Source: Nitrospirota bacterium (GTDB lineage: Bacteria; Nitrospirota; Thermodesulfovibrionia; Thermodesulfovibrionales; Dissulfurispiraceae). From it: DNA of 64,000 bases. The notes under the pieces are model-generated. The model saw nothing but the letters and a program-made list of their open reading frames with translations, was not told the DNA's origin and did not search any database. The translations under genes and the position numbers were made by a program. The stretch is from assembly GCA_963784135.1 (NCBI GenBank), contig CAWAQG010000005.1:46823-110822 (forward strand), given 5' to 3'. Shown piece after piece: positions 41,795 through 55,760 of the stretch (positions within the stretch are counted from its first letter, which is position 1; the number at the start of each line of letters is the position of its first letter).

Positions 41795-41806
41795 ATTATA
41801 TACCTG

Positions 41807-42496
41807 ATGCTCTTGTGCGATTTTCATATCCACACCACCTACTCCGACGGTTCCGTGGAGTTGAGACGTACCATCGACCTTTTTGGACAAGCAGGATTTG
41901 ATGTTATTGCAATTACTGACCATGTGGTGAACGGCGACAACTCCATTGGAAAGTTTGCCCATCGCTTCAACCTGTCGGTAAGAGAAGACAATTTCGAGGA
42001 GTATATGGAACATATCAGGAAAGAGGCGGCAAGAGCATGGGACAAGTACGGGATGCTGGTGATCCCCGGAGTTGAAATCAGCAAAAATCATCTGTCTTCC
42101 GACAAATCCGCTCACTTGCTCCTTATTGATATAAAGGATTTTATTCCCGCATGCTGGAACTATGAGAAGATCTTTCTTGAGGCAAAGGAACAGGACGCAT
42201 TGATAGTGGCCTGCCACCCTCATTATATGTCGGACATGAGCCGCGACACGCTTTTCCTCTGGAACAACAGGGAGAAATATGCCAAATACATCGATGCATG
42301 GGAAGTAGCAAACAGAGACGACGTCTTCAATGTTATAAGCCTGAAGAAGTATCCCTATGTCGCTAATAGTGACTTCCATAAGGCACGCCACCTGTATTCG
42401 TGGAAAACGCTGCTTAATTGCGAGAAAGATACTGCAGCGGTAAAACAATGTATTAAACACAACAAAGGGGTCGCAATTACCCTTTTCAGAAACTGA
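41807..42496 (+). CDS. PHP-domain metal-dependent phosphoesterase
   Basis: N-terminal CDFHIHTTYSDG and later HP/H motifs (ACHPHY). Confidence 0.75.
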   Translation: MLLCDFHIHTTYSDGSVELRRTIDLFGQAGFDVIAITDHVVNGDNSIGKFAHRFNLSVREDNFEEYMEHIRKEAARAWDKYGMLVIPGVEISKNHLSSDKSAHLLLIDIKDFIPACWNYEKIFLEAKEQDALIVACHPHYMSDMSRDTLFLWNNREKYAKYIDAWEVANRDDVFNVISLKKYPYVANSDFHKARHLYSWKTLLNCEKDTAAVKQCIKHNKGVAITLFRN

Positions 42497-42517
42497 AGCA
42501 CTAATGGAGGGAGGGGT

Positions 42518-43744
42518 ATGGGAATATTCTGGATATTTGCTTCTCTTACTTTTTTAGGTCTTATTGCTTATGGCTTTCAAATATGGGCTGTACGCTCATA
42601 TCTTTCCACTCCCTGTAACTGCGGGGAAGGGCATGCCCTTCCCCGACTTTTTCCCCCAGTTTCGATTCTTAAACCGCTTAAGGGACTGGATGACAATCTG
42701 TACGACAACCTTCTCAGCTTCTGCAATCAGGACTATCCTGAATATGAGATTATATTCTCGCTCCAGAGTCATAATGATCCTGCCTATAAAGTTGCAAGGA
42801 AAATAAGAGAAAAATGCCCTGGCAGAAACATCACCATTATAGTTGAGGCATCCAATGCAGGTCTTAATCCGAAAGTCAATAATCTTCTGCCGGCATATAA
42901 AGCTTCAAGATATGAGTATATCCTTATCAGCGACAGCAATGTAATGGTTGATGAAAAGTATCTCAGGGAAATAACCTGTCAGATAGCGGACCCTGCTGCA
43001 GGCCATGAAATAGGATTAGTAAGCAATATTATAAAAGGTGTCGGCGGCCGTTCACTCGGGGCCGTATTTGAAAATCTGCACCTTAACTCCTTTGTTATGG
43101 GCAGCGTATGTTTTCTCGACAAGTTCCTGAAAATGCCCTGCGTGGTCGGGAAATCCATGCTGATGGGCAAAAAGGATTTGGAGGCAATCGGCGGGCTAAA
43201 AGCGGTAAAAAACATTCTTGCCGAGGATTATGTGCTTGGTGAAAGAATGCGCAAAAGCGGCAAAAAAGTAGTGCTGTCCAGCTATATGGTGCAGAATGTG
43301 AATGAATACTGGGGGATCAGGCGGTTCCTTAACCGTCATACGAGATGGGGCAAGCTCAGGTGGAAGCTCGGCGGCGGGAAATATATATTCGAATTGATCG
43401 GCAACCCCGTATTCATGTCGGCGCTTCCTATTGTATGCTGGCAATGCTCTAAATTGACCGTGACCTTTGCAATTCTCACCGCCCTTCTTAAGGTTGCCGG
43501 CGACTTCTATCTGGGCAGGAAGACGGGAACAGAACTGGACAATCCATTCCTTTACTTGCTTGCTCCGTTTAAAGACCTTCTTATCGGGCTCATATGGCCG
43601 GTGCCGCTTGTCAGCAATACTGTTGTTTGGAGAGGCAACCGGTATAGTATCGGCAAAAATTCTATACTCTCCCCCTGCCCTGAAACCGGTTTCTGGTCCC
43701 TGCGCTACAGGATTATAGATGCAATAAGGGAGAGATTTGCATAA
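42518..43744 (+). CDS. GT2/GT21 glycosyltransferase (ceramide glucosyltransferase / HpnI-like)
   Basis: N-terminal TM; SILKPLKGLD; ISDSN (D2); AEDY (D3); (Q/R)xxRW as RHTRWGKLRW; C-terminal TM helices. Confidence 0.7.
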   Translation: MGIFWIFASLTFLGLIAYGFQIWAVRSYLSTPCNCGEGHALPRLFPPVSILKPLKGLDDNLYDNLLSFCNQDYPEYEIIFSLQSHNDPAYKVARKIREKCPGRNITIIVEASNAGLNPKVNNLLPAYKASRYEYILISDSNVMVDEKYLREITCQIADPAAGHEIGLVSNIIKGVGGRSLGAVFENLHLNSFVMGSVCFLDKFLKMPCVVGKSMLMGKKDLEAIGGLKAVKNILAEDYVLGERMRKSGKKVVLSSYMVQNVNEYWGIRRFLNRHTRWGKLRWKLGGGKYIFELIGNPVFMSALPIVCWQCSKLTVTFAILTALLKVAGDFYLGRKTGTELDNPFLYLLAPFKDLLIGLIWPVPLVSNTVVWRGNRYSIGKNSILSPCPETGFWSLRYRIIDAIRERFA

Positions 43745-43759: not shown

Positions 43760-43993
43760 ATGAATACATATATAACGCAGAGCGAAAGATGCCATACGGT
43801 TGTCGGCTGCGAGCATAGTTGTCCCTATTGTAATAACGAGAGCGGCATCTGTGCAGCCTCTTTGTCACAACTGGCAATCGATACCAGAAGAAGGTCCGGC
43901 TATTGCAATAATGAAAATTACGACAGTTGTCCGATGTTTTTGGCAAGGACCCTGCGAGGGGTCCCCAAAAAATCAAGGACTTTGGGGGAATAG
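43760..43993 (+). CDS. Small Cys4-motif protein, family member C
   Basis: The core pattern Cys are at residues 21, 31, 49 and 57 (C-P-Y-C...C-x17-C-x7-C-P); there are further Cys at 11, 17 and 24. It starts 13 nt after the GT21 stop. Confidence 0.6.
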   Translation: MNTYITQSERCHTVVGCEHSCPYCNNESGICAASLSQLAIDTRRRSGYCNNENYDSCPMFLARTLRGVPKKSRTLGE

Positions 43994-44008
43994 AAGGAGG
44001 TGGAAACT

Positions 44009-44176
44009 ATGTGTCCGGAGTTAAAAGAGGGTTCATGTGTGATAGCGGGTATTGAACCTGAAAAAGTAGCTTGTGCGGACACTCATTGCTGCAACAGCAA
44101 TGAGTGGGACAGGTGCAGAGTCTACATTTCACAATTTTTCCTGACCGGCGCCGGGGCATTCAGAGAGGTTGCATAA
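44009..44176 (+). CDS. Small Cys4-motif protein, family member D (55 aa; below the ORF-track cutoff)
   Basis: ATG at 44009 with AGGAGG 8 nt upstream. Translation: MCPELKEGSCVIAGIEPEKVACADTHCCNSNEWDRCRVYISQFFLTGAGAFREVA. Cys 2, 10, 28 and 36 give the same x17/x7 spacing. Confidence 0.55.
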   Translation: MCPELKEGSCVIAGIEPEKVACADTHCCNSNEWDRCRVYISQFFLTGAGAFREVA

Positions 44177-44181
44177 GACTT

Positions 44182-44221
44182 TGTTACAGTAATGTAACAT
44201 TCTTTTCATATTGCTGTAACA
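44182..44221 (+). promoter_or_regulatory. Pho-box-like array: TGTTACA-gtaa-TGTAACA-ttct-TTTCATA-ttgc-TGTAACA
   Basis: Four units at exact 11-bp phase, immediately upstream of the SD and start of member E. Confidence 0.55.
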
Positions 44222-44257
44222 TTGAGTTGTTATCATACAAAGGAGATGGAAAACAAA

Positions 44258-44479
44258 ATGTATATGGAAAGACTTACAATCTGTCCGCATCTTAAAGGAA
44301 GCCCGGTAGGCGCGGAGTGCCTTGTAGTGAACAAACTTGTCAAGGATATGCAGGATGTGGACATAAGAATATGCATGAGCAGGCGTCATGAAGCGTGTTC
44401 GGTCTATTTCTGCTCTCTGCAAATGGTCGAGGATGGCGGCGCCTATAAGCTTAAGTCGGTCCAGTGTTCCGGGATTTAA
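44258..44479 (+). CDS. Small Cys4-motif protein, family member E
   Basis: AAGGAG at 44240-44245 with in-frame ATGs at 44246, 44258 and 44264; I chose 44258. Cys 9 (C-P-H-L), 21, 39 and 47 relative to that start. Confidence 0.55.
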   Translation: MYMERLTICPHLKGSPVGAECLVVNKLVKDMQDVDIRICMSRRHEACSVYFCSLQMVEDGGAYKLKSVQCSGI

Positions 44480-44485
44480 CACGAA

Positions 44486-44514
44486 AGTAACAAAGCTGTC
44501 ATATTAGTGTAATA
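44486..44514 (+). promoter_or_regulatory. Pho-box-like array: AGTAACA-aagc-TGTCATA-ttag-TGTAATA
   Basis: Three phased units, then TAAAAT at 44524-44529. The GTG start at 44536 lies 7 nt downstream, giving a leaderless-type arrangement. Confidence 0.5.
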
Positions 44515-44535
44515 TTATTTGCTTAAAATGTACTT

Positions 44536-44847
44536 GTGACGGCAGATGCGGTTAAAGAAAAAATTGAAGTAAAGTGTCCGCATTGCAATTTGGATGCTGT
44601 ATATAAATATGGCAAAACGTGGCAGGGGAAGCAGCGGTTTCTATGTCTTATATGCGGCAGGCAATTTACCCAGAGTACAGGGAGATTTGAAGTCAAGGAC
44701 AGACCGGATTGTCCGGCGTGCGGCAAGATAATGCATTTATATAAAAGGGACGATAAAATATTGCGATTCAGGTGTTCGGGATATCCGGTTTGCAAGACAT
44801 TCTGGAAAACTTATATGGAGGGAGCTAATGAGCTACTACATTCATAA
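44536..44847 (+). CDS. Double zinc-ribbon protein (IS1 InsA-like CxxC...CxxC + topoisomerase-type C4 finger)
   Basis: CPHCN...CLICGRQF, then CPACG...FRCSGYPVCK. The GTG start is uncertain. Confidence 0.5.
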   Translation: MTADAVKEKIEVKCPHCNLDAVYKYGKTWQGKQRFLCLICGRQFTQSTGRFEVKDRPDCPACGKIMHLYKRDDKILRFRCSGYPVCKTFWKTYMEGANELLHS

Positions 44848-45199
44848 TGTGCCTGGAAGACTCAGAATTAAAAGCCCGGCAATAAAAAAGAACGAAAACG
44901 TGGCTAACGAACTCAAAATGGCATTGAGTACGATGAACGGGATTGCCACAGTCGACATTAACCTTACTACCGGCAGTCTGCTGGTGAACTATAATCCAAA
45001 GATGGCCAGCCATAAGGACATCATAAGCATACTGCAGCGGAAAGGTTATTTCGATACGACAAAGGCAGCTACCAATGAGCAGTATATTCATAGCGCCGCC
45101 ACTAAAGCCGGCCACCTGGTGGGCAAGGCGGTTTTGGGGGCTTTTGTCCAGGAAGCATTGGAAGGTTCGGCCCTGTCGTTATTAGCTGTATTACTGTAG
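44828..45199 (+). CDS. HMA2/CoBaHMA-like 'PGRxR' domain protein with C-terminal hydrophobic/amphipathic tail
   Basis: HNVPGRLRIKSP...NLTTGSLLVNYNP...ILQRKGY; contains no Cys; tail GKAVLGAFVQEALEGSALSLLAVLL; SD GGAGGGAG. Confidence 0.65.
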   Translation: MSYYIHNVPGRLRIKSPAIKKNENVANELKMALSTMNGIATVDINLTTGSLLVNYNPKMASHKDIISILQRKGYFDTTKAATNEQYIHSAATKAGHLVGKAVLGAFVQEALEGSALSLLAVLL

Positions 45200-45247
45200 T
45201 AAATCAGCCGCAGCAGTTCTCCCTGTTGTACCCTTAATGGACACCTT

Positions 45248-46033
45248 TCACTCCAATTCCAGACGCAAAAGGCTGTAGCCGTCCCTGACTTTCCCAAACA
45301 CAAAGGAAGAGAGTCTTTTTCTGTCCTCCGTAAAATGGTACAGCGTATGATTGAAGTGAATACGTGCATCAATCCGGCTTAAACCCAGAAGGTTCCAAAA
45401 ATGAGGGACGAACTGCATATCTGAATGCCAGGCAACAGCATCAATTGTTCCGGGCGTCACAGGCATACGATCTATGTGCGAGTATACAATGCTCAAGGGC
45501 AAAATAGGCACCTTGCTGTCTATCGGCGCTTTGAAAAAAACGCTCTTGAAATCTCTGATGGTGAGTCCGTCATTGGTAGTTCCCTCAGGGAAAACCACAA
45601 CACTGATACCGCTCTCGAGGCGCTCCTTAATGGCCTCCAATACTCTGACCGCAGCTGTTTTGGATTCCCTGTTGACAAAAACAGTCCCTGCAAGCTTTAC
45701 CATCCTGCCCAGGAAAACCCAGGAGGCCACCTCCCTTTTTGAGACGAAGACCGAAGGCATTATTGTGCCTATAATGAGTATATCCAGATAGCTGCAATGA
45801 TTACTAACGATGAAGAAGACATCGTTTTGTTTATATGAGCCGGACGGAGTAACATAAATCCCAAGGATAAAACAGTTGGCCCGCGCCCACCACCGCATAC
45901 TATGAGCACGGAGGTGCATTTTCTTTTCAGGCGCAAGAAAAAAAGCTGCTGTTATCAGAATACCGCAGACAAGGAAGACGGGATTGAGTATAAGAAGCAG
46001 AAATAATCTTAATAATTTTATTACGCCCGGCAT
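45248..46033 (-). CDS. Lysophospholipid/lyso-aminolipid acyltransferase (PlsC family; OlsA-like)
   Basis: NHCSYLD (HX4D) and FPEGTT motifs. It overlaps the upstream GNAT gene by 13 nt. Confidence 0.75.
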   Translation of the reverse strand: MPGVIKLLRLFLLLILNPVFLVCGILITAAFFLAPEKKMHLRAHSMRWWARANCFILGIYVTPSGSYKQNDVFFIVSNHCSYLDILIIGTIMPSVFVSKREVASWVFLGRMVKLAGTVFVNRESKTAAVRVLEAIKERLESGISVVVFPEGTTNDGLTIRDFKSVFFKAPIDSKVPILPLSIVYSHIDRMPVTPGTIDAVAWHSDMQFVPHFWNLLGLSRIDARIHFNHTLYHFTEDRKRLSSFVFGKVRDGYSLLRLELE

Positions 46034-46818
46034 AACGTCTCGTCCGACTCCTGGAAAAACCTCCTTTTATAGCGGCTGATGAGCTTTTCTGTTTCGAGGA
46101 GCAAAAAGAGATCGGTTGTACCGAAGATGTCGTCATAAGCCGGCTCTCCGCAGATAAGCGCTCCGAGCCGCAGATATCCCTTGATAAGCGGCGGAAGCTT
46201 CTCGAATGCGGTTTTCTGGTCCACAATGCGGGCCAGGCGTAACCCGAGCAGCTTTTTCATAGGATACACCGTAAATTCGTCGCCCGCCCGGTGAAACGTG
46301 TTCATATAAGAGTATACCATGCTTACTTCATCAGGATCACTGGTATGCAGGCTGCCGCAGCCGAACAAATGGCGCACACTGTATATTTCCATGTACCGGG
46401 CAATGCCGGCCCAAAGCAGGTTGATGACACCCGCATTCCTGTAATCCTTGTGGACACAGGAACGGCCGAGTTCCAGCTTATCGCCACTGATGGCCCTGAT
46501 GGCGGTCATATCGAATTCGCCCTCCGAATAGTAGCCGATATTGTTTTCCGCGACAAAACTCAGGAGCAGGCGATAAGTGCCGACCACCTTGTTACAACGG
46601 GTATCGACAACAATGAGGTGGTCACAATAGTCATCGTAACTGTCCCTGTCCATGCCGGTGATATAAGATCTGTTGAGTCCCTCATTCAATTCCCTGTTAA
46701 ATACATCAAAACGCAGTTTGAGCGCATTTTCCAGTTCTTCGTAATATTCAGCCAGTTTAACAATAAAGTGACCGTTGCGCATGCTCAGAACCGTGCTTTG
46801 ATTCTTTCCCATTATCAC
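46021..46818 (-). CDS. GNAT-type N-acyl amino acid synthase (OlsB/hemolysin-like)
   Basis: Its size, the N-terminal LRFDVFNRELNEGL block and the pairing with a PlsC-family gene resemble olsB-olsA aminolipid loci. Confidence 0.6.
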   Translation of the reverse strand: MIMGKNQSTVLSMRNGHFIVKLAEYYEELENALKLRFDVFNRELNEGLNRSYITGMDRDSYDDYCDHLIVVDTRCNKVVGTYRLLLSFVAENNIGYYSEGEFDMTAIRAISGDKLELGRSCVHKDYRNAGVINLLWAGIARYMEIYSVRHLFGCGSLHTSDPDEVSMVYSYMNTFHRAGDEFTVYPMKKLLGLRLARIVDQKTAFEKLPPLIKGYLRLGALICGEPAYDDIFGTTDLFLLLETEKLISRYKRRFFQESDETLCRA

Positions 46819-46861
46819 CCCTCCTGCGACACTGCAAATTTGTATACTTTACAGGAAAAAG

Positions 46862-46901
46862 GGTTAAAGCAGTTTTACAGGAATATTAATTTTAAGTTAC
46901 A
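46862..46901 (-). promoter_or_regulatory. Pho-box-like array (minus strand): TGTAACT-taaa-ATTAATA-ttcc-TGTAAAA-ctgc-TTTAACC
   Basis: Four units at exact 11-bp phase, 45-85 bp upstream of the olsB-like start. Confidence 0.5.
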
Positions 46902-46917
46902 GACAGGCAAGGGCAAA

Positions 46918-46970
46918 GGTAGAGGTGGAGGCAAAGGCAGAGTTTTCTTTATCTATACCTCTACCTCTAC
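46918..46970. repeat. Hexamer-repeat hairpin GGTAGAGGTGGAGG ... CCTCTACCTCTAC directly after the metK-like stop
   Basis: The arms are complementary (12/14 plus wobble) and are embedded in ggcaagggcaaagg-type repeats. It is a likely terminator separating metK-like from olsB-like. Confidence 0.55.
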
Positions 46971-46973
46971 TTG

Positions 46974-48161
46974 CTATTTCAGCAGTTGGGCTTTATCAGT
47001 GATTTCCCAGGGCAACCCTATATCCATCCTGCCGACGTGTCCGTAGACAGCGAGCTTCCGATAGAAACCGCCTTTAATGGTAGCAGGCAGGCGCCTCAGG
47101 CTAAATTGTTTTACAATTCCGGCAAGCCTGAAATCGAAATTTTTCTCTACCAGATCGGCAATAATTGTGTCCGGCAGTTTGCCGGTGCCGAACGTCTCTA
47201 CCTGGATGCTCACGGGACGGGAAAGACCTATGGAATAGCTGAGCTGGATTTCGCACTCCTCGGCAAGCCCGGCCGCAACCACATTCTTCGCCGCGTAACG
47301 CGCGGCATACGCGCCGACCCGGTCAATTCTCATGGGGTCCTTGCCGCTGAGTGCTGCACCGCTGTGGCGCGAATACTCCCCATAGGTATCAATGGCATTT
47401 TTTCTGCCGGTAAGCCCTGAATGGATTGACGGGCCGCCGGTTATAAACGGGCCGTCCGGATTAACGAATATTCTCGTATTTTTATCCGGCTTGACAACTT
47501 CATCATGGAAGACATTATCGATAATCGCTTCCCGTATATCGTCTCTCAGCTGTTGCAGCTCAGGGCCGCCGTGCTTATTCTGGCTTGCAATGACCGTTAT
47601 GCTGTGTATCCTGGACGGAATACGGTTTCTGAATTCAACTCCCACCTGTGTTTTCCCGTCCTGGGAAAGATAGGGCAGTATCTTCTGAAGCCTTGCCGAA
47701 GTGAGCCGTCTGGCGAGCTTATGCGCCAGCCATATGGGAAGCGGCATAAATGCGGGGGTCTGATTACAGGCGAAACCAAAAACCGTGACCTGGTTTTTCA
47801 CCGGGATGCTGTCGATTTCACTCTCGGTCAGCTCCCGTTCATCAAAATTGAAGTCCGCATCACGGGGCGATTCTTTGAGGCTTGTCAGGATACTGCATGT
47901 TTTGCCGTTAAACTCATGCTGTTCATAGCCGATCTGGGATATTACCTGGCGCGCTATATAGGGGAAGTCAACCCGTGCCTCAGAGGCAAACCTTGCAGCG
48001 ATGAAGAGAATCGATGTCGAAACAGCGCATTCCGCGATAACACGCGAGTAAGGGTCCTGCTGAAGAAAGTGGTCTACTATGGCATCGCTTATCTGGTCGC
48101 AGAGTTTGTCGGGATGTCCCTCTGTTACCGATTCGGACGTAAACATGAAATCCTTTTTCAT
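46974..48161 (-). CDS. Divergent methionine adenosyltransferase (MetK-like)
   Basis: TSESVTEGHPDKLCDQISDA, GLTGRK, SGKDP..IDR and AYAARY match MetK. The GAGDQG block reads PVKNQV and GGPxGD reads GGPSIH. The start overlaps the ATPase stop. Confidence 0.7.
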   Translation of the reverse strand: MKKDFMFTSESVTEGHPDKLCDQISDAIVDHFLQQDPYSRVIAECAVSTSILFIAARFASEARVDFPYIARQVISQIGYEQHEFNGKTCSILTSLKESPRDADFNFDERELTESEIDSIPVKNQVTVFGFACNQTPAFMPLPIWLAHKLARRLTSARLQKILPYLSQDGKTQVGVEFRNRIPSRIHSITVIASQNKHGGPELQQLRDDIREAIIDNVFHDEVVKPDKNTRIFVNPDGPFITGGPSIHSGLTGRKNAIDTYGEYSRHSGAALSGKDPMRIDRVGAYAARYAAKNVVAAGLAEECEIQLSYSIGLSRPVSIQVETFGTGKLPDTIIADLVEKNFDFRLAGIVKQFSLRRLPATIKGGFYRKLAVYGHVGRMDIGLPWEITDKAQLLK

Positions 48162-51100
48162 ATGGCTTCACCTCGCATAGTTTTCTTGGTGGCTTCATTG
48201 ACAACCAGAGGGAGCAGCGAACTTCCGCCGATTACCAGCGCATCTGTAAGATTTATCGTTGTTGTTCCGAGCAGACCTCTAAGTCCGGGCAATGCTATTG
48301 TCAATGCCTGCAGCGCAAATGAACCTCCGAGGGCCGCATTAAGGTACCTGTTGGAAGGGAGACGCTCTTTGTCAAAGATGCTGAGTTTTTCAGAACGGCA
48401 GCTGATGGCATGCAGAAGCTGACTCGTTGTGAGAGTCATAAAGGCCATTGTCCCTGCCTGTGCTCCGCGGCCGTATCGCGCAAGGCCGTACCCGTAAGCT
48501 CCGAGCGTGGCCGCGCTCATCATTGCCGATTCGAAACCTATCCTTTTAAAGTCGCTGCTCATAATAATAGGATGCTCAGGGTTGCGCGGCGGCTTGCTGA
48601 GGACATCGGGTTCAGGCTGTTCAAGTGCCAATGCCAGTCCCGGGAATATATCGGATATAAGGTTGATCCAAAGCAATTGCATGGCATTGACCGGCTGACC
48701 GAGGCCTCCGGCAATCGCCGTAAACATGACCATAATTTCACTGAGATTGGTCGACAGGAGAAAGTGTACTGATTTCCGGATATTGTTATAAATTGTGCGT
48801 CCGTGGCTTACAGCTATGATCATGGTCTCGAGATTGTCGTCCTCCAGCACAATATCGGCCACCTCGCGGGCGACATCCGTGCCGGTATGTCCCATTGCGA
48901 TGCCTATGTCGGCGGCCTTAAGCGCGGGGCCGTCATTAATGCCGTCGCCGGTCATAGCGACAACTTTCCCGGCGCTCTGAAGAGCTTGCACTATTTGAAG
49001 CTTATGGGCGGGACTTACGCGGGCAAAAACATGGACACGCTCGGCAAGCGCTTTCATGACATCCGGTTCTATATCCGTAAGGTGGGTCGAATCAAGGATC
49101 TCGAGCTGTTCTCCATTGCTCAAATCCAGCTCGTTTCCGATGGCATAGGCTGTAGGGGTCTGGTCTCCGGTTATCATAACTGTTTCTATGCCGGCCTGGT
49201 GGAAGACGCCGATCAGCTCCCTGACTCCCTTTCTGGTGGGGTCTGCCATCCCCACAAGGCCGAGCCAGACGAAACCGCTGCTGATATCGGACCCCGTGCC
49301 GTTGCCGTTTTCAATATGGTGATAAGCGAAGCCGAGGACGCGCAGTGCTTCACCGGCCATTCGCTCATTCTCTGTTTCCATTGCAAGCTTGTCATCATCC
49401 GAGATCAAAATCTTTTCGCCGTCCTTTATATACCAATCGCACATTGCCAGCACTTCCGTAGGACTGCCTTTCAGCGCGACGATCTTGCCCTCCGCGCCGT
49501 AGTCATGGTAGGTAGCCATATAATTGCGGTTTTCAGCGCGGTAGCCTATTTTGAGAAGCGGGTATTTATTTCTGAGCTGCATGATGTCAACCCCTGCGCA
49601 AATAGCCATATGCATAAGGGCATTCTCGGTGGGCGAGCCGCGCAGCACATATTTACCCTCTCCGTTATCATTGTAAGAGCTTCCCCCGGCCGGTTCACCC
49701 GCATGCTCTTTTACAATGATTTCAGATTCATTGCAGAGCACAGCTATATGGATGAGCCTGAGGAACTCGTCCATTGCATAAGGGTTAACCGTCTCCCTGC
49801 CTGCCATAAATTTTCCGTCCGCAACTTTTATCCTCTTCATCCCCGAATGCACAGCAACAACCGTCATCCTGTTCAGAGTTATGGTGCCGGTCTTGTCCAT
49901 GCATATGGTCTGCACCGAGCCGAGCGTCTCGACCGCATTGAGATGGCGTATGAGGACTTTATGCCTCCTCATATTCCTGATTCCCAGAGCGAGGGTCGTA
50001 GTTGCAACGGTCGGCAGCCCCTCGGGCACAGCGGCTACAGCAAGAGAGATCGAGCTTTTGAGCATCTGCAGGAAACCATATCCCCTGAGCAGACCTATGA
50101 CGAAAACAATACCACAGACTGCTCCGCTGATAAGAACAAGCTGTGTGCCCATTTTTTTAAGCTGGCGCTCCATAGGAGTATCGGGCGACTCCGCCGCTCC
50201 CACGAGTTCCTGTATCTTCCCTATCTCCGTGAATTTCCCGGTAGCTACAACTACAGCAAAGCCCTGTCCCCCTGTCACCAGGGTGCCCATATAGGCCATA
50301 TTGACCCTGTCGGCAAGCGGAATATTGTGGCCTGCTATGCTTGCCGTATTCTTTATGACCGGCATGCTCTCGCCGGTAAGGGCGGATTCATCAACGCTCA
50401 GGTGGGCTGTTTCAATCATTCTGCTGTCGGCAGCGATATAGCTGCCGGGCCTTAGTACCAGGATGTCCCCGATTACCACATCCTCGGCAGGGACCTCTTT
50501 ATAAATACTATCTCTTATGACAAGCGCGGAGGGCCTGACAAGGCTTTTGAGCGAATGAATGGTTTTCTCCGCCTGGCTCTCGGTTACATAGCCTATAACA
50601 GCATTGATGCCGACTACTCCTGCAATAACCACTGCATCAGCTATTCCCCCGGTCAGTACCGAAAGACCGGCAGCAACACCGAGCAAAGCATTAGGTATAG
50701 AGTTGAACTGTTCGAGCAGGATGCTCAGTCCGGAACGCGGGACCGATTCAGGCAGGAGATTGGGACCGAATTTCTTTAGCCTGGCTTGTGCGCTTTCACT
50801 TGAAAGTCCCGCAAGTGCCGCGGAATCCAGCCGCTCAAGGATTGCCGATAGTTCGGCGGTATGCCATGCCTCAACCGTCTGGTCCTCGGCGTGGCTGACA
50901 AGTCTTCTTACTTTCCCCCTGCTTTTTATCTCTTTAGCCGGAGCAGAAGACAGCCCGGACTCAGGCCCGGGGCCTGATGGAGGAGCAGTATCTTCCGTCT
51001 GCCTGAAGCTCTCGCCTTTATATTCGAGGACGATATTTTGAATAATCAGGGCAACAGCTTGGGAGGTATTGACGGAATTGAAATAGACGAGAATGCTTCC

Positions 51101-51247
51101 GGTCAATGTGTTTACAGAGACAAGATTAATCCCTTCTCTGCCTGAAAGACCCGATTCAAGATGCTCTCTCAGTGGTTCCGAACGATAAAGTCCGGGCACC
51201 TTGTATCGGGCCCTTCCGGGGATGGCCGCGTGTACTGTCTGTACCAC
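48158..51247 (-). CDS. P2-type (SERCA/PMCA-like) cation-translocating P-type ATPase with N-terminal HMA2/CoBaHMA-like domain
   Basis: DKTGTIT; TM4 VPEGLP; TGDGINDGPALKAADIGIAMG; TM5/6 NLSEIM and WINLISD; N-terminal AAIPGRARYKVP...NTLTGSILVYFNS. Confidence 0.85.
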   Translation of the reverse strand: MVQTVHAAIPGRARYKVPGLYRSEPLREHLESGLSGREGINLVSVNTLTGSILVYFNSVNTSQAVALIIQNIVLEYKGESFRQTEDTAPPSGPGPESGLSSAPAKEIKSRGKVRRLVSHAEDQTVEAWHTAELSAILERLDSAALAGLSSESAQARLKKFGPNLLPESVPRSGLSILLEQFNSIPNALLGVAAGLSVLTGGIADAVVIAGVVGINAVIGYVTESQAEKTIHSLKSLVRPSALVIRDSIYKEVPAEDVVIGDILVLRPGSYIAADSRMIETAHLSVDESALTGESMPVIKNTASIAGHNIPLADRVNMAYMGTLVTGGQGFAVVVATGKFTEIGKIQELVGAAESPDTPMERQLKKMGTQLVLISGAVCGIVFVIGLLRGYGFLQMLKSSISLAVAAVPEGLPTVATTTLALGIRNMRRHKVLIRHLNAVETLGSVQTICMDKTGTITLNRMTVVAVHSGMKRIKVADGKFMAGRETVNPYAMDEFLRLIHIAVLCNESEIIVKEHAGEPAGGSSYNDNGEGKYVLRGSPTENALMHMAICAGVDIMQLRNKYPLLKIGYRAENRNYMATYHDYGAEGKIVALKGSPTEVLAMCDWYIKDGEKILISDDDKLAMETENERMAGEALRVLGFAYHHIENGNGTGSDISSGFVWLGLVGMADPTRKGVRELIGVFHQAGIETVMITGDQTPTAYAIGNELDLSNGEQLEILDSTHLTDIEPDVMKALAERVHVFARVSPAHKLQIVQALQSAGKVVAMTGDGINDGPALKAADIGIAMGHTGTDVAREVADIVLEDDNLETMIIAVSHGRTIYNNIRKSVHFLLSTNLSEIMVMFTAIAGGLGQPVNAMQLLWINLISDIFPGLALALEQPEPDVLSKPPRNPEHPIIMSSDFKRIGFESAMMSAATLGAYGYGLARYGRGAQAGTMAFMTLTTSQLLHAISCRSEKLSIFDKERLPSNRYLNAALGGSFALQALTIALPGLRGLLGTTTINLTDALVIGGSSLLPLVVNEATKKTMRGEAI

Positions 51248-51253
51248 GTACCG

Positions 51254-51919
51254 CTATGCTTCCCTTTTTGTTCTGTGCCTGGTCGAAATCTCAGGTGCAG
51301 AATGAGTCGCCTCCGGCGCTGACGAACGCGGCAGTGCGGAGCCGGCAACTTCCTTCACTCCGGCAACGACGCCGACGAGCATGTCCTTCACAGCGCGCAC
51401 AGCAGTATTGCCGATAGCTCCCGCTGCCTCTATTGCGCCTCCGACAGCAACTGTGGCAGCTTCTTCCACATTACCGCCGACTTCTTTTGTGGCTTCAATT
51501 ACACCGTCCACAGCCCTTCTCGCTACGAGTGCCACATCAGCGCCGACTTCGGCAGCACCCTTGACCGCACCTTTGACAGTCTGCCCCGTAACACTCAGTA
51601 CATCGCCTCCTACATCGCTGACCCCCATTATAATGCCTTTTGCAACACTTTTAGTGCTCAGAATCAGGCCGGTACCAACCTCTTCCGTGGCCTGAATTGC
51701 ACCCTTTACTACATCTTTTGTTACGACCACACCCTCGCTGGTTACAGATGCCGTCGCCTTCAGCGCATTAGAAACAATGTTTCTCACTAAACTCACTATT
51801 TCAGCCTCGATTTCGTTGATTCCTTTCAGACTGCTTACAATGCCCTCTTTCACCTTTGTTCCAGCTGCTCCAATGTTGGCAGCCCTGCCCGGATTGGTCT
51901 TAGCCTCGCCCTTAGTCAT
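51254..51919 (-). CDS. Ala/Val/Gly-rich protein built of about eight tandem 22-residue repeats
   Basis: Repeats align as VVKGAIQATEEVGTGLILSTKS / VAKGIIMGVSDVGGDVLSVTGQ / TVKGAVKGAAEVGADVALVARR / AVDGVIEATKEVGGNVEEAATV / AVGGAIEAAGAIGNTAVRAVKD. Confidence 0.6.
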   Translation of the reverse strand: MTKGEAKTNPGRAANIGAAGTKVKEGIVSSLKGINEIEAEIVSLVRNIVSNALKATASVTSEGVVVTKDVVKGAIQATEEVGTGLILSTKSVAKGIIMGVSDVGGDVLSVTGQTVKGAVKGAAEVGADVALVARRAVDGVIEATKEVGGNVEEAATVAVGGAIEAAGAIGNTAVRAVKDMLVGVVAGVKEVAGSALPRSSAPEATHSAPEISTRHRTKREA

Positions 51920-51997
51920 AATAGCAACCCCCTTTTAGATTGTTATTAATTGTGTTTTTTTGATGTGCCATGCGACGGTTTGACTACACGGCTGCCG

Positions 51998-52486
51998 CTA
52001 CTTGTTCTCCTCACCAGTGGCATGAGGCACTGATTTCAGAAATATATTCAATGAATACCAAAAAGCTGTATACCATGCGGGGGCCGCAAAGTTCCCCCTG
52101 CTGATTTCGTATATACCGAACCCCAGCAGCGTCAGGAAAGCAACTCCGGGGACATCCAGTTCGTTGCCGGTAAGTCTTTTTACTCCCTTATCAAAATCTT
52201 TGAAGGTTTTTACTACATTTCGGGACAGAGCAGGCGTCCCGTTATCTAATTTAATGAGCCTGAAGAGTGAGTTCTCCTCGGCAAAAACAGAAATTGCCTT
52301 TAAATCAGCAGCATGAATGAACACAACACTGCCGGTAAGGGCATTTGCTTCTACTTCCCTTACTCCCTCAAGATGAGTAAAATGGTCTTTCAGATTAGAG
52401 AAATAAGCGGCATTTCCTTTTCTGGAGGGCACTTTTACCCTCGATCTTCCAGGTGTAGAGTGGCATACAATCGCTTCCGGTATCAT
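51998..52486 (-). CDS. HMA2/CoBaHMA-like 'PGRxR' domain protein with C-terminal TM hairpin
   Basis: HSTPGRSRVKVP...NALTGSVVFIH; C-terminal VAFLTLLGFGIYEI...AWYTAFWYSLNIFL. Confidence 0.65.
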   Translation of the reverse strand: MIPEAIVCHSTPGRSRVKVPSRKGNAAYFSNLKDHFTHLEGVREVEANALTGSVVFIHAADLKAISVFAEENSLFRLIKLDNGTPALSRNVVKTFKDFDKGVKRLTGNELDVPGVAFLTLLGFGIYEISRGNFAAPAWYTAFWYSLNIFLKSVPHATGEENK

Positions 52487-52773
52487 TAAGCGCCTGTTTT
52501 ATCCTCGGGGCTGGTCCCGGCTGCCTGATTATGTGACTCCGCCATTTCAGCCTTTACTTCTGCAACGATATCTTCCATCATCTCACCTGCTTCTGCAACA
52601 GCCTCTTTGCTTTTTTCATATAGAATAAGGCTGCCTTTGATAGCGGCTTTTGCAATCGGCTTTATCACTCCCGCCAGTGCCGGAATCACCTGGGGGGCAA
52701 ATAGAGCCGTACCAACACCGATAGCGAGCCCTGTAACTATATTACCCTTTAATCCATTATCAAAAAGTGCCAT
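52486..52773 (-). CDS. DUF5132-like small membrane/amphipathic protein
   Basis: 95 aa; a Gly/Ala-rich hydrophobic N-terminal half (GLAIGVGTALFAPQVIPALAGV), then an acidic helix. The family assignment is from memory of this sequence pattern. Confidence 0.5.
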   Translation of the reverse strand: MALFDNGLKGNIVTGLAIGVGTALFAPQVIPALAGVIKPIAKAAIKGSLILYEKSKEAVAEAGEMMEDIVAEVKAEMAESHNQAAGTSPEDKTGA

Positions 52774-52890
52774 ACTGTCCTCCCGCTTGTTAGTACGTGT
52801 CTAATCAAAGTGTATAATAGAACGACTCAAATGTAAATGTAAAAGCTTTATACATAAAGTTTTCATTACATACCTACATAGCATAAAGAC

Positions 52891-52968
52891 AGGGGCAAGG
52901 GGCAAGGAGCATGGGGTTAGCATCTTTATACCTGTAACCTAAACCTCTTGACCCTTGCCTCTTGCCTT
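52891..52968. repeat. Hexamer-repeat hairpin AGGGGCAAGGGGCAAGGAG ... CTCTTGACCCTTGCCTCTT in the divergent intergenic region
   Basis: G-rich and C-rich arms built of GGGCAAG units, about 16/19 complementary with one bulge. Confidence 0.55.
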
Positions 52969-52974
52969 TTGAAA

Positions 52975-53014
52975 TGTCACAAAGTTGTAACAAACCGTTC
53001 ATCATATTGTAAGA
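52975..53014 (+). promoter_or_regulatory. Pho-box-like array: TGTCACA-aagt-TGTAACA-aacc-GTTCATC-atat-TGTAAGA
   Basis: Four units at exact 11-bp phase, about 45 bp upstream of the 53060 start. Confidence 0.55.
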
Positions 53015-53059
53015 ATAGTTATGATTTAATTAATAAAACCTGAAAGGCGGGTGGATTGA

Positions 53060-53314
53060 ATGATCAACTACAGGGTGGTTCACCATGTTCCGGGACGCAT
53101 CAGAGTGCAGGTGCCGATAATCAAAAAGCTTTCTGTTGCAACATTAGAAAAATTAGCCGGGATACCATTACCGGAGGGGATTAAAGATATCCGCGCCAAT
53201 CCGATTACCGGAAGTCTTGTCATAACATATGATCCTGATCATGTTGACATAGAGAAATACCTGGAAAAAATGACGACAGACAGTGAGATAACCTCAACAA
53301 TCGGCATGAGGTGA
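53060..53314 (+). CDS. Stand-alone HMA2/CoBaHMA-like 'PGRxR' domain protein
   Basis: 84 aa: HHVPGRIRVQVP...NPITGSLVITYDP; contains no Cys. Confidence 0.65.
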   Translation: MINYRVVHHVPGRIRVQVPIIKKLSVATLEKLAGIPLPEGIKDIRANPITGSLVITYDPDHVDIEKYLEKMTTDSEITSTIGMR

Positions 53315-53321
53315 TACTGTA

Positions 53322-53510
53322 ATGCCAACCGGTACGGCAAGAAGGGAAAGTCCGCTTCCAAAAGTTGAGAGCAGGCGCCTGAAATGCCCTTACCTTACTA
53401 AATACATCATATTTACCTGTCAGGCAGGAGCTGTCCCTTACGTTCCAAGTTTGTTCCAGCTTGAAGAGTACTGTAAAAGTAAGCAGCATAAGAAATGCCC
53501 TTTGCTGTAA
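53322..53510 (+). CDS. Small Cys4-motif protein, family member B
   Basis: Starts 8 nt after the HMA2-like stop. Cys 22 (C-P-Y-L), 33, 51 and 59. PYVPSLFQLEEYCKSKQHKKCP closely parallels member A (PYTPSLSELHNYCKGKEYTKCP). Confidence 0.65.
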   Translation: MPTGTARRESPLPKVESRRLKCPYLTKYIIFTCQAGAVPYVPSLFQLEEYCKSKQHKKCPLL

Positions 53511-53606: not shown

Positions 53607-53648
53607 TCAGGAGGGATTTCATAAGAGGGAGGTGATATGTAATATAGA

Positions 53649-53677
53649 TTTAACATTGGCGTAACATTTATGTAACA
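53649..53677 (+). promoter_or_regulatory. Pho box array upstream of pstS: TTTAACA-ttgg-CGTAACA-ttta-TGTAACA
   Basis: Three 7-bp direct repeats at 11-bp phase, 50-80 bp upstream of pstS, the canonical Pho regulon gene. Confidence 0.65.
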
Positions 53678-53728
53678 GTTATTCGTTTATCCTTAAATTA
53701 GTAAGAAATTGTTCCAACAGGAGGAAGT

Positions 53729-54739
53729 ATGAAAGTATTAGTTAGTTTGCTTGTATCTGTAGCTTGCGTTTTGACGTTCTCAGTAGTACATGCGGAAGAT
53801 ATGCTGACAGGCGCGGGAGCAACCTTCCCTGCCCCGATATATCAGGCATGGGCGTATGATTATAATAAGACAACCGGCATTAAGCTCAATTACCAGTCTA
53901 TAGGCTCAGGAGGAGGCATCCAGCAGATTAAGAGCAGAACAGTGGAATTCGGCGCATCTGATGCACCCCTGACACCTGAGGAACTTAACAAAGATGGACT
54001 GATCCAGTTCCCTGCCGTTATGGGGGGGGTTGTTCTTGTTGTTAACATGCCCGGCGTAAAGGCAGGCGAGTTAAAACTGGATCCTGATGCTGTATGTAAA
54101 GTATATCTTGGCGACATCAAATACTGGGATGATGCAAAGCTTAAGACCCTGAATCCAAAAGCAAACTTGCCCCATACTGAAATTACCGTTGTCCATAGGT
54201 CTGACGGCTCCGGTACCACCGCAATATTTACCACTTATCTTTCCGAAGTATGTTCTGACTGGAAAACAAAAGTTGGGGCCGGAACTTCTGTAAAATGGCC
54301 TGTCGGCATCGGCGGCAAGGGAAATGAGGGAGTGTCCAACTATGTACATCAGGCCCCTGCTGCTATCGGCTACGTCGAATTTGCCTATGCAAAACTGAAC
54401 AATCTACCCTACACAGCGTTAAAAAACTCGGCAGGCAAGTTTATAGAGCCGAGCTTCGAAGCTTTTGAAGATGCCGCTGCCTCAGCGAACTTTGATCCGA
54501 AAAAACACTTCGATCTCTGGCTCGTTAATGCCCCCGGCAAGAATGCATGGCCTATCGCAGGCGCCACCTTTATTCTGCTTGCAAAAGACAACAAGGCAGC
54601 CGATATGAAAACCGTCAAGTTTTATAACTGGGCTTTCAAAAACGGCGATGCAAAAGCCAAGGAACTGATCTATGTGCCGCTGCCGAAGAGTTTAAAAGAC
54701 AAGATCCGCGCATACTGGAAGGAGTACGGCATCTATTAG
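53729..54739 (+). CDS. pstS: Phosphate ABC transporter substrate-binding protein
   Basis: Signal peptide; GAGATFPAPIYQAW; SGGGIQQI; HRSDGSGTT. Confidence 0.9.
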   Translation: MKVLVSLLVSVACVLTFSVVHAEDMLTGAGATFPAPIYQAWAYDYNKTTGIKLNYQSIGSGGGIQQIKSRTVEFGASDAPLTPEELNKDGLIQFPAVMGGVVLVVNMPGVKAGELKLDPDAVCKVYLGDIKYWDDAKLKTLNPKANLPHTEITVVHRSDGSGTTAIFTTYLSEVCSDWKTKVGAGTSVKWPVGIGGKGNEGVSNYVHQAPAAIGYVEFAYAKLNNLPYTALKNSAGKFIEPSFEAFEDAAASANFDPKKHFDLWLVNAPGKNAWPIAGATFILLAKDNKAADMKTVKFYNWAFKNGDAKAKELIYVPLPKSLKDKIRAYWKEYGIY

Positions 54740-54818
54740 AAGTTAGATTGAATTAAGAGGGTCAGGTATGTATTATATATCCTGACCCTTTTATTTACCT
54801 TTTAAAGGAGCTTGCAGC

Positions 54819-55760
54819 TTGCCTATTCTTGACAAAAAGAACCCTATTGACTTCGCATTCTCTCTTATAACGGCGTTTGCCTCAACACTTGTAATTATAA
54901 TGGTCATAGGCATTCTAATAGTGCTTATACGGGAGTCATCGCTTGCCATCAGTCGTTTCGGCGTGATCGACTTTTTAAAATCCACTGACTGGAACCCTGT
55001 AACAAAATCCTTCGGGGCTGCGACAACCATATTCGGGACCGTTGTTACGACCGTACTCTCTCTCGCAATTGCGGTGCCGGTCGCCATCGGCATTGCCATC
55101 TTTGTAACCGAAATATCTCCTAATTTTTTGAAAGGTCCTATAGGGATCGCCATTGAACTCCTGGCAGCGATACCCAGTATTATTTATGGCATGTGGGGGC
55201 TGTTCACCCTCGCTCCTATCATGTCGAGATATATAGAACCGGCGCTTCAGAAAAGCGTAGGCTTACTGCCTGTGGTTGGGATGTTGTTCAAAGGCACGCC
55301 CATGGGTATAGACATGCTGACGGCAGGTGTTATTTTGAGCATCATGATTATACCGTTCACCGCAAGCATTTCGAGGGACGCCTTTAACTTGACGCCTGCC
55401 GTGGTCAAGGAGTCTGCATATGCAATCGGGGCCACGAAATGGGAAGTTGTAAAGAACGTTGTGCTCCCTTATTCAAAGCTTGCCGTTTTCGGAGGCGTTA
55501 CGCTCTCCCTGGGCAGGGCGCTGGGCGAGACCATGGCAGTAGCTTTCGTCCTTGGAAACAACCATCAGATTACCGCCTCGCTATTTGATGCTGCTGCAAC
55601 CATCACCGTATCTCTTGCCAATGAATTTACCGAGGCCGACACAGACATCTACCTGTCGTCTCTTTTTTATCTGGCCCTTGTTCTTTTCATAATGAGCTTT
55701 GTAGTCCTTGCAGTTGCAAGGGTCTTTCTGCTCAAGGCCGAGAGGAAATATTCACGATGA
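54819..55760 (+). CDS. pstC: Phosphate ABC transporter permease PstC
   Basis: Six TM helices and the EAA-like loop ESAYAIGATKWEV. The TTG start from the ORF track is uncertain. Confidence 0.85.
   Translation: MPILDKKNPIDFAFSLITAFASTLVIIMVIGILIVLIRESSLAISRFGVIDFLKSTDWNPVTKSFGAATTIFGTVVTTVLSLAIAVPVAIGIAIFVTEISPNFLKGPIGIAIELLAAIPSIIYGMWGLFTLAPIMSRYIEPALQKSVGLLPVVGMLFKGTPMGIDMLTAGVILSIMIIPFTASISRDAFNLTPAVVKESAYAIGATKWEVVKNVVLPYSKLAVFGGVTLSLGRALGETMAVAFVLGNNHQITASLFDAAATITVSLANEFTEADTDIYLSSLFYLALVLFIMSFVVLAVARVFLLKAERKYSR

Follow-up and report, generated by a model that had tools for sequence, protein, structure and literature searches.

The CoBaHMA domain family, its fusions to transporters and its company of DUF5132 proteins and Ca2+ transporters are present in the literature at the bioinformatic level. 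CoBaHMA domains are defined by two traits, a histidine located in an additional strand, beta0, and basic residues of the strands beta1 and beta2. The closest described gene set is the ccyA neighbourhood of Microcystis aeruginosa PCC 7806, in which the genes of a CoBaHMA protein with a C-terminal helical hairpin, a stand-alone CoBaHMA protein, a Ca2+ transporter and one or two DUF5132 proteins lie together and are co-expressed; the same preprint explicitly equates the Pfam model HMA_2 with the CoBaHMA family (bioRxiv 10.1101/2024.07.07.602159). Here we analyse a stretch of 64,000 nucleotides (nt) from a Nitrospirota bacterium of the Dissulfurispiraceae (assembly GCA_963784135.1, contig CAWAQG010000005.1, positions 46,823 to 110,822), from here on called the window, which likewise holds CoBaHMA and DUF5132 genes next to a cation transporter gene. 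The core of the locus is a five-gene operon for a DUF5132 protein, a CoBaHMA-TM protein, an alpha-solenoid repeat protein, a P2-type ATPase fused to a CoBaHMA domain, and a MetK-like enzyme. Its satellites are two small CoBaHMA proteins, a double zinc-ribbon protein and the Cys4 mini-proteins. We see about an even chance that these genes form a phosphate-starvation-linked, CoBaHMA-regulated module that exports a divalent cation, probably Ca2+, and has an enzyme derived from MetK as a partner.

The core operon is read from the minus strand. It begins with the DUF5132 gene (52486-52773; 95 amino acids, aa), which overlaps by 1 nt, at 52486, with the gene for the 162-aa CoBaHMA-TM protein (51998-52486), an HMA_2 domain followed by three helices. 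A gap of 78 nt separates this gene from that of the 221-aa protein with 22-residue repeats (51254-51919), predicted to be an eight-helix alpha-solenoid. After 6 nt follows the 1029-aa P2-type cation ATPase (48158-51247), with its CoBaHMA domain at the N-terminus (residues ~4-72), and the start of the 395-aa MetK-like gene (46974-48161) overlaps the ATPase stop by 4 nt. The satellites are read from the plus strand. At one end, the gene for the 103-aa double zinc-ribbon protein (44536-44847; an InsA/IS1-type and a Top1-type ribbon by Pfam and NCBIfam) overlaps by 20 nt with that of a 123-aa CoBaHMA protein with a short C-terminal hydrophobic tail (44828-45199; Pfam HMA_2). At the other end, a small soluble CoBaHMA protein of 84 aa (53060-53314; Pfam HMA_2) is followed, 7 nt downstream of its gene, by a Cys4 protein of 62 aa (53322-53510). 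The gene coordinates and all spacings given for this locus in an earlier first-pass annotation, made from the letters of the window, were exact when rechecked.

Some 60 genomes of anaerobic bacteria carry the operon in nearly the same form. When one genome was scanned for each species with a 13-sequence alignment, 154 relatives of the CoBaHMA-TM protein emerged, and the best 80 of these 154 loci were annotated with hidden Markov models (HMMs) built from the genes of the window. Counting loci with a feature over loci with enough flanking DNA, 77/78 have DUF5132 immediately upstream of CoBaHMA-TM, 61/74 have the repeat protein, 65/68 have the ATPase, and 57/60 have MetK after the ATPase. Among the satellites, the small CoBaHMA gene was present in 29/33 loci and the zinc ribbon in 24/33. 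The gene set that the first-pass annotation had singled out is therefore syntenic in other genomes. In three contexts with 65-67% ATPase identity, the order is DUF5132, an HMA_2 protein of ~160 aa, an unknown protein of ~225-240 aa, ATPase and MetK, with the zinc-ribbon/HMA_2 pair and a divergent small HMA_2 gene nearby. The same operon order holds in L001-L004 and in L088, from a genome labelled Limnocylindrales, and is retained at 32-34% CoBaHMA-TM identity. Judged by record titles, about half of the loci are Nitrospirota (Thermodesulfovibrionales, Dissulfurispiraceae) and about half Desulfobacterota (Syntrophobacter, Syntrophus, Syntrophorhabdus, Geobacteraceae, Desulfobulbaceae, SEEP-SRB2). 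Since the order persists across loci and phyla, the core is a five-gene operon and not a chance neighbourhood.

Some of the loci show variations around this core. At L089 (7351-11088), where the CoBaHMA-TM protein is 32% identical to that of the window and a pstSCAB operon lies alongside, the DUF5132/CoBaHMA-TM pair is tandemly duplicated upstream of the ATPase and MetK genes. In L001 (7477-8382), two short genes, whose matches to Cation_efflux (CDF) are weak or faint, diverge from the DUF5132 gene at a distance of 40 bp and may be fragments of a second cluster-associated cation transporter. The gene 3' of MetK varies, being that of a DUF3562 protein in L001 (14433-14753) and L004 (8798-9010) or of a low-molecular-weight phosphatase (LMWPc) in L002 (14485-14925); in the window, this place is taken by OlsB and OlsA.

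The first-pass annotation had noticed four domains with common PGRxR and TGS motifs and had assigned them to one HMA-like family, which holds on both counts. All four pass the Pfam gathering threshold of 30 bits for HMA_2 (PF19991), with 51.4 bits for the 123-aa protein, 38.4 for the N-terminus of the ATPase, 53.8 for the 162-aa protein and 37.6 for the 84-aa protein, and the 162-aa protein covers positions 10-153 of the 154 in the profile. The arginines R11 and R13 of the PGRxR motif are invariant across 15 aligned sequences, in which the TGS motif aligns too, and an alignment of 49 sequences has H9, R14 and R16 invariant or nearly so. In the pump, the CoBaHMA domain keeps its histidine in 61/65 orthologues and GRxR in 64/65. 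The structure was modelled for one of the four domains, that of the 162-aa protein, with AlphaFold2 (AF2; pLDDT 89.6). Strands at residues 4-11, 14-18, 42-48 and 53-58 and helices at 26-37 and 62-71 follow each other in the order beta0, beta1-alpha1-beta2-beta3-alpha2, before three further helices, the last two of which form an aromatic-rich C-terminal hairpin (GNFAAPAWYTAFWY). Foldseek matched this domain to MerP, CopZ, the metal-binding domains of ATP7B and KipI-like YbgJK at a root-mean-square deviation of ~2 A, with E-values that are weak, as the domain is short. By this model, the domain is an HMA-like ferredoxin fold with an extra N-terminal strand beta0.

Two details of the initial description had to be corrected. 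The domains had been called cysteine-free, and indeed none of the four has a CxxC motif, but the 162-aa CoBaHMA-TM protein has a single cysteine at position 8. Likewise, of the two C-terminal hydrophobic anchors that had been proposed, that of the 123-aa protein is only a short hydrophobic tail (maximum KD19 of 1.51). The 123-aa protein carries a net charge of +6 over its first 75 aa. CoBaHMA-TM proteins are numerous, with 1637 representative clusters in an exhaustive search, and nearly all of the best 150 matches listed are 150-180 aa long and aligned almost end to end. The orthologues of the 84-aa protein are divergent from DUF5132 in many loci, and the pairing of zinc-ribbon and CoBaHMA genes is conserved across loci.

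The ATPase has the Pfam domains Cation_ATPase_N, E1-E2_ATPase and Cation_ATPase_C, and its closest matches in the PDB are SPCA1, LMCA1 and SERCA. The motifs DKTGT and TGDGIND are invariant in 65 orthologues, and so are PEGLP, NLSE and NLISD, which are also present in the window's protein. Among the cation ligands of these orthologues, the glutamate of transmembrane helix 4 (TM4) is kept in 64/65, and the asparagine and glutamate of TM5, the asparagine and aspartate of TM6 and the glutamine of TM8 each in 65/65. In a by-eye mapping to the SERCA sequence, these residues include the presumed equivalents of E309, N768, E771, N796 and D800, all conserved, while T799 is a serine or threonine. The pump is therefore intact, as indicated by the conservation of its catalytic motifs and of the TM4, TM5 and TM6 ligands. 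The NCBIfam models of heavy-metal P1B pumps score far below their cut-offs, and the only NCBIfam model passed is the generic P-type one. This bears out the first-pass assignment of the pump to the P2 type, on the strength of PEGLP, NLSE, NLISD, the Pfam domains and the NCBIfam scores, and a ferrosome-like or P1B reading of the locus was dropped because of the ATPase class. The ion transported would most likely be Ca2+. The fusion of HMA_2 to a P2-type pump is common to hundreds of homologues.

The two other small members of the operon seem to belong together. The 95-aa protein matches DUF5132 (PF17195) with 62.6 bits against a Pfam cut-off of 25, and consists of an N-terminal, Gly-rich hydrophobic segment (KD19 maximum of 1.8 at residues 12-30) and a charged helix. 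For the 221-aa protein, the first-pass annotation had noted a period of 22 residues, which is real, since the BLOSUM autocorrelation peaks at lags of 22, 44 and 66 (1.23, 1.05 and 0.97, against a baseline of about -0.6). It had also imagined an amphipathic scaffold; the prediction is instead a compact alpha-solenoid of eight helices, each 18-25 residues long, with glycine turns between them (AF2; pLDDT 81.6, pTM 0.71), rather than an extended structure that binds lipids. Its top fold matches are designed helical repeat proteins, and the fold search found no natural structural relative in the PDB. The repeat protein has 72 detectable homologues. Some of them, from other bacteria, join the repeat domain to a DNA-binding zinc finger of the ROS/MucR type or to a CheY receiver (P0122, P0124, P0182), and a DUF5132 gene lies directly 3' of the repeat-MucR fusion gene, with no pump visible in that region; hence the repeat domain has a tie to DUF5132 in which the ATPase plays no part. 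The two would thus seem to be partners that can be coupled to the control of transcription. The repeat-domain fusion loci are located at 10001-11659 of L005 and 1747-3405 of L006. The family is not confined to the operon, as a homologue with 39% identity (L007) stands in an unrelated gene context. Two further fusion homologues, with a PstS-like part (P0180) and an OlsB-like part (P0184), look truncated or chimeric and were not used.

The MetK-like protein has the Pfam N, M and C domains of methionine adenosyltransferases, reaches 381 bits with the equivalog model TIGR01034 (cut-off 309), and scores ~300-337 bits against solved MetKs. Nevertheless, the 65 cluster-linked MetKs are only 41-47% identical to three canonical MetKs, which are 59-63% identical to each other, whereas among themselves they are at least 59% identical (median 71%) across two phyla. 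HMMER and MAFFT alignments agree on a set of conserved replacements: E70 to R, Q113 to L/S/M, S114 to P, D134 to N, D258 to H (65/65) and K289 to R (65/65). In terms of motifs, GE(I/V)T has become AR(F)A (Arg in 59/65), EQSPDI has become KE(L/S)PRD, GGPxGDxGLTGRK has become GGPS(V/I)HSGLTGRK (His in 65/65), and HGGGAFSGKDPSKVDR has become HSGAALSGKDPxRIDR (Arg in 65/65). In the window's protein and in the consensus of the 65, GAGDQG reads PVKNQV and the signature GGGAFSGKD reads SGAALSGKD. A 7-residue insertion near the C-terminus of the clade is without canonical counterpart. The triphosphate-binding and catalytic residues are kept, namely GHPDK, DGK (55/65), TGRK, SGKD and DR, and so is the second Asp.

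In human MAT2A, Glu70, Gln113 and Asp258 hold the main chain of methionine, and the variants Asp258Gly and Lys289Asn lower the synthesis of S-adenosylmethionine (SAM) while leaving the tripolyphosphatase activity unaffected (PMC6850014). Exactly these four positions, Glu70, Gln113, Asp258 and Lys289, are replaced in the cluster-linked MetKs, and their pocket is more basic. We infer that the MetK-like gene is a neofunctionalised paralogue forming a divergent clade. The first-pass annotation had treated it as a bystander, which does not agree with its presence in 57/60 loci, a conservation equal to that of the pump and a remodelled substrate pocket. A scan of the whole 64-kb window with Rfam returned one tRNA only, and so no SAM or other riboswitch near the MetK-like gene.

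The link to phosphate starvation comes from the promoters. Both the pstS promoter and the divergent intergenic region between the DUF5132 gene and the 84-aa CoBaHMA gene contain TGTAACA-like heptamer direct repeats with an 11-bp spacing. Heptamer direct repeats of this period are the architecture of PhoB/PhoP boxes. On the plus strand, the array of the divergent region (52975-53014) has the four half-sites TGTCACA/TGTAACA/GTTCATC/TGTAAGA at an 11-bp period, and that upstream of pstS (53638-53681) has three overlapping 22-mers. Further Pho-box-like sites precede the zinc-ribbon gene (44475-44518) and a Cys4 paralogue at 44222-44479 (sites at 44182-44225), the true start of which is probably an internal methionine. 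A two-repeat scan of the window gave 8 matches, all within those four regions, while dinucleotide-shuffled sequences gave 0.2 on average and never more than 1. A position weight matrix (PWM) built from ten sites was applied to 79 loci outside the training set (1.14 Mb), where 1.5 sites would be expected and 117 were found. A labelled gene follows within 120 bp downstream for 83 of the 117 sites, and in 74 of these 83 cases it is pstS or a zinc-ribbon, small CoBaHMA (84-aa type) or Cys4 gene. Such a site precedes 12/14 pstS genes (at 26-70 bp), 10/12 Cys4 genes orthologous to the one at 44222-44479, 15/36 zinc-ribbon genes (at 11-43 bp) and 7/27 small CoBaHMA genes (at 49-66 bp).

The core operon itself has a sigma-70-like promoter, TTTACA-18-TATTAT, found by consensus scan on the minus strand (52814-52843). 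Eight aligned divergent regions share two conserved blocks, one with the Pho-box array and the promoter of the small CoBaHMA gene, and the other with the sigma-70-like promoter of the core. In genomes without a variable insertion between the genes, no more than a few tens of bases separate the Pho-box array from the operon's -35 element, which is downstream of it. The distribution of the sites makes Pho control of the satellite genes in Nitrospirota appear well supported, and that of the core operon plausible. A GGCAAGG/CCTTGCC inverted repeat, considered as an operator, was rejected, because it sits in the variable insertion, which is absent from 4/8 aligned regions. In the window, this inverted repeat is imperfect (GGCAAGGGGCAAGG... 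/ ...CCTTGCCTCTTGCC, 52894-52966), with 25-nt arms that are 80% complementary, and may be a small repeat element.

The Cys4 proteins deserve a separate mention. Alignment identifies five paralogues of 58-85 aa on the plus strand of the window (38288-38503, 43760-43993, 44000-44176, 44222-44479 and 53322-53510), with four invariant cysteines in the pattern CP-x-L ... C ... YC-x-S-x-x-Y-x-x-CP-x-Y. No Pfam family matched them. Three of them are arranged in tandem at 43760-44479, with orthologues in the same position in L004 and L008-L016, and the pairing of a Cys4 gene with the 84-aa CoBaHMA gene is conserved. Most of the five genes are located at or near Pho-box-like repeats. The Cys4 proteins may thus represent an undescribed family of phosphate-starvation mini-proteins.

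Several neighbours of the cluster point in the same direction without being part of its core. A pstS-pstC-pstA-pstB-phoU gene set lies at 53729-58031 on the plus strand, as open reading frames with HMM labels for PstS and PhoU. Pst operons adjoin the cluster in several lineages, including L088 and L089, and PhoU was found in 13/32 loci. On the minus strand, downstream of MetK, are genes for OlsB (46021-46818; Pfam Acetyltransf_5) and OlsA (45248-46033; the NCBIfam lyso-ornithine lipid acyltransferase model, below its cut-off). The first-pass annotation had counted these neighbouring lipid-remodelling genes as part of the module, a view we had to abandon: OlsB is present in 6/33 loci, which places the ornithine-lipid genes outside the conserved unit. 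They are better explained as members of a phosphate-starvation island together with pstSCAB-phoU and the genes for a GT21 glycosyltransferase, a PHP-domain protein and a GH1 beta-glucosidase. The presence of PsiE in L004 fits such an island.

The GH1, PHP and GT21 genes form a conserved triad beside the cluster in several Nitrospirota (40418-43744 in the window, 13826-17165 in L004 and 2831-6111 in L015). Weak Pho-box-like sites occur upstream of the PHP gene (41766) and of olsB (46901). Together with the triad, these are consistent with glycolipid remodelling under phosphate limitation. Further upstream, at 38197-40396, weak Pho-box-like sites (38197-38229) and a Cys4 paralogue are followed by a 616-aa EAL-CBS-GGDEF protein, which hints at a link between phosphate status and cyclic di-GMP turnover. 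The window also includes an IS200-like transposase (27279-28238, minus strand), an rve-type integrase (30800-31663, plus strand), a DDE transposase (59737-61044, plus strand), an ankyrin-repeat protein (31734-32222) and the tRNA (32348-32431). The cluster does not appear to lie within a mobile element.

Taken together, the reading we prefer is that of a cation export module. The ATPase would be an active pump of the cytoplasmic membrane that moves a divalent cation, probably Ca2+, out of the cell interior. The CoBaHMA domain at its N-terminus, on the cytoplasmic side, would gate the pump in cis, and the membrane-anchored and soluble CoBaHMA proteins would serve in trans as regulatory or docking modules. 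The basic face of these domains may recognise an anionic partner, either the head groups of anionic phospholipids or a polyanion. DUF5132 would be a small membrane subunit, on which the alpha-solenoid could dock as a cytosolic adaptor. In Nitrospirota, the satellites, and probably the operon too, would be switched on with pstS in phosphate starvation, when anionic phospholipids would be replaced and the cation balance would shift. The MetK-derived enzyme is likely to have kept its chemistry with ATP and triphosphate and to have lost canonical methionine recognition; it may contribute an adenosyl- or triphosphate-dependent activity coupled to the pump. Going one step further, we regard it as possible, on a tentative footing, that the operon is a membrane system of a kind not recognised before, used by anaerobes under phosphate starvation, in which this enzyme, with its basic, non-methionine pocket, performs a novel ATP-dependent reaction, either adenosyl transfer or one of triphosphate, in functional coupling with a P2 pump gated by CoBaHMA. 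If so, the coupled MetK/pump system might handle or sequester a cation-anion pair, or build a structure containing Ca and P.

A number of points weigh against the export module. Its components are known here only as sequences and predicted models, and the related loci all come from metagenome-assembled genomes, some of them with doubtful taxonomic labels. As to the ion, the TM8 glutamate of SERCA site I (E908) is a glutamine in 65/65 orthologues, and the pump misses the NCBIfam equivalog cut-offs for both the PMR1 type (612 vs 798 bits) and the SERCA type (528 vs 703 bits). As to the regulation, Pho-box sites were detected upstream of only 4/69 repeat genes, 1/85 DUF5132 genes and 1/86 ATPase genes, with a PWM trained on sites from the window and three loci, and the near-palindromic motif makes the orientation of the sites ambiguous. 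Furthermore, pstS is adjacent in only 9/33 loci, so that the phosphate link is weaker for the core operon and for the Desulfobacterota. The paralogy of the MetK-like gene is read from its sequence only. Finally, the binding of CoBaHMA domains to anionic lipids is a published hypothesis and not a result.

The same genes could also be read in other ways. We consider it unlikely that they form a compartment or biomineral module, in which the pump would load Ca2+ into or beside an inclusion, such as amorphous calcium carbonate or Ca/Mg-polyphosphate, while the basic CoBaHMA proteins, DUF5132 and the repeat protein would organise its envelope or nucleate the anionic phase. Such a role would connect well with calcyanin, which marks intracellular amorphous calcium carbonate and the commonest type of which has a CoBaHMA domain at its N-terminus, and with the genes for CoBaHMA-TM, DUF5132, small CoBaHMA and a Ca2+/H+ exchanger that flank ccyA in Microcystis and are co-expressed with it. 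In addition, intracellular amorphous calcium carbonate has been reported from some magnetotactic Nitrospirota, a polyanion would be a suitable partner for the basic patch, and polyphosphate would agree with the phosphate link. However, the cluster has no apparent calcyanin-like (GlyZip)3 protein, and its lone repeat protein is a charged, soluble-looking alpha-solenoid. Neither carbonic anhydrase, bicarbonate transporter, ppk nor ppx was found among the window genes examined, and nothing points to an internal-membrane location of the pump. We also know of no report of inclusions in Syntrophus, Syntrophobacter, Syntrophorhabdus, Geobacteraceae or Dissulfurispiraceae, which counts against this role.

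Quite unlikely, in our judgement, is a module for lipid sensing and remodelling. Here, the CoBaHMA domains would report the loss of anionic phospholipids in phosphate starvation, the MetK-like enzyme would supply SAM or an analogue for phosphorus-free lipids, and the ATPase would secondarily adjust the surface or counter-ion balance. OlsB and OlsA follow MetK on the same strand in the window and its closest relatives, the GT21, PHP and GH1 genes co-occur nearby, and the weak Pho-box-like sites 5' of olsB and of the PHP gene fit the same picture. CoBaHMA domains are proposed to bind anionic lipids, and Gaschignard et al. reportedly found them in 2024 in proteins of lipid metabolism. Yet OlsB occurs in 6/33 loci, against a near-universal pump and MetK-like gene, and neither a SAM-dependent lipid methyltransferase nor a BtaA/BtaB-like gene was seen in the cluster. 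The loss of the canonical methionine ligands from the MetK-like pocket argues against a simple supply of SAM. Even less credible is the ordinary explanation that a housekeeping Ca2+ exporter and the housekeeping SAM synthetase happen to lie together, the small open reading frames being unrelated or spurious and the genes having no joint function. It would account for the MetK passing the NCBIfam metK equivalog cut-off (381 vs 309 bits), for P2A pumps being common bacterial housekeeping genes, and for several small open reading frames having no database family. It conflicts with a gene order and translational coupling that span two phyla, down to 32% CoBaHMA-TM identity, with small proteins that are conserved families with confident structure models, with hundreds of homologues in which the pump is fused to this same CoBaHMA domain, and with conserved replacements in the MetK clade at sites where mutations of human MAT reduce its SAM synthesis (PMC6850014). 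This conservation makes a set of unrelated genes unlikely; the regulated export module stays our preferred reading.

The meaning of the operon reaches beyond this locus. The CoBaHMA family, until now bioinformatic and tied to intracellular calcium carbonate, gains a second and tighter genetic context, which supplies clear and testable partners, and phosphate starvation emerges as a candidate regulatory input that can be tried in culture. The operon also suggests that anaerobes can equip their P2-type cation pumps with dedicated accessory subunits, a subject little explored in bacteria. Moreover, the chance is substantial that the operon, through its MetK-like partner, is more unusual than a regulated P2 cation pump with accessory proteins. 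The widespread genes that automatic annotation will label as methionine adenosyltransferase, in which the methionine-binding residues are replaced, represent either a systematic misannotation or a new enzyme activity.

In the literature that we searched, neither the conserved five-gene operon nor its alpha-solenoid member is described, and the same goes for the remodelled MetK, the Pho-box link and the Cys4 family. The first-pass annotation's claim of an undescribed system is therefore upheld for the operon itself, which our literature search did not turn up, but not for all of its parts: the association of CoBaHMA, DUF5132 and a Ca2+ transporter had been noted beside ccyA (bioRxiv 10.1101/2024.07.07.602159), so that these parts were already known.

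Among the systems that can be compared with this operon, the ferrosome fez operon shares the common theme of a P-type ATPase and small membrane proteins in anaerobes. Its FezB is a P1B-6 ATPase, however, whereas the pump here is of the P2 type and the accessory families are HMA_2 and DUF5132. Closer in pump class are SERCA with phospholamban or sarcolipin, LMCA1 and SPCA/PMR1, whose catalytic motifs and TM4, TM5 and TM6 ligands are conserved here. The operon, too, pairs its pump with a small membrane protein of single-pass-like build (DUF5132); the regulators are not homologous, and a corresponding role for DUF5132 is presumed. In contrast to these pumps, the ATPase here adds an N-terminal CoBaHMA domain and has a glutamine for the TM8 glutamate. 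The copper system CopZ/CopA likewise has a ferredoxin-fold domain both free and at the N-terminus of a P-type ATPase encoded nearby. The domains of CopZ/CopA carry a CxxC metal site, whereas CoBaHMA has a histidine and RxR basic signature and the extra strand beta0. CopA is a P1B pump, while the pump here is P2-type with PEGLP and no CPx motif. A further difference is that two of the free CoBaHMA domains here have a C-terminal hydrophobic segment, a short tail in the case of the 123-aa protein. The MetK-like enzyme shares with canonical MetK/MAT the three-domain architecture, the passing score with TIGR01034 and the triphosphate-binding and catalytic residues, and differs in its replaced GAGDQG and HGGGAFSGKD motifs, in the residues E70, Q113, D258 and K289, in its 7-residue insertion and in its identity of 41-47%.

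Nearest of all, as regards gene content, is the ccyA neighbourhood of Microcystis, and the differences from it are instructive. No protein of the cluster fits the published description of calcyanin, with its three apolar Gly-zipper motifs of ~50 aa each, and calcyanin and the GlyZip/DUF1269 proteins, present in Microcystis, were not seen in the operon here. The transporter beside ccyA is a CAX Ca2+/H+ exchanger without a CoBaHMA fusion, whereas here it is a P-type ATPase fused to CoBaHMA. A MetK-like gene, a 22-residue-repeat alpha-solenoid and Pho boxes are unreported for the Microcystis neighbourhood, and all three are found here. Finally, the carrier of ccyA is a cyanobacterium, while the operon described here is carried by anaerobic Nitrospirota and Desulfobacterota.

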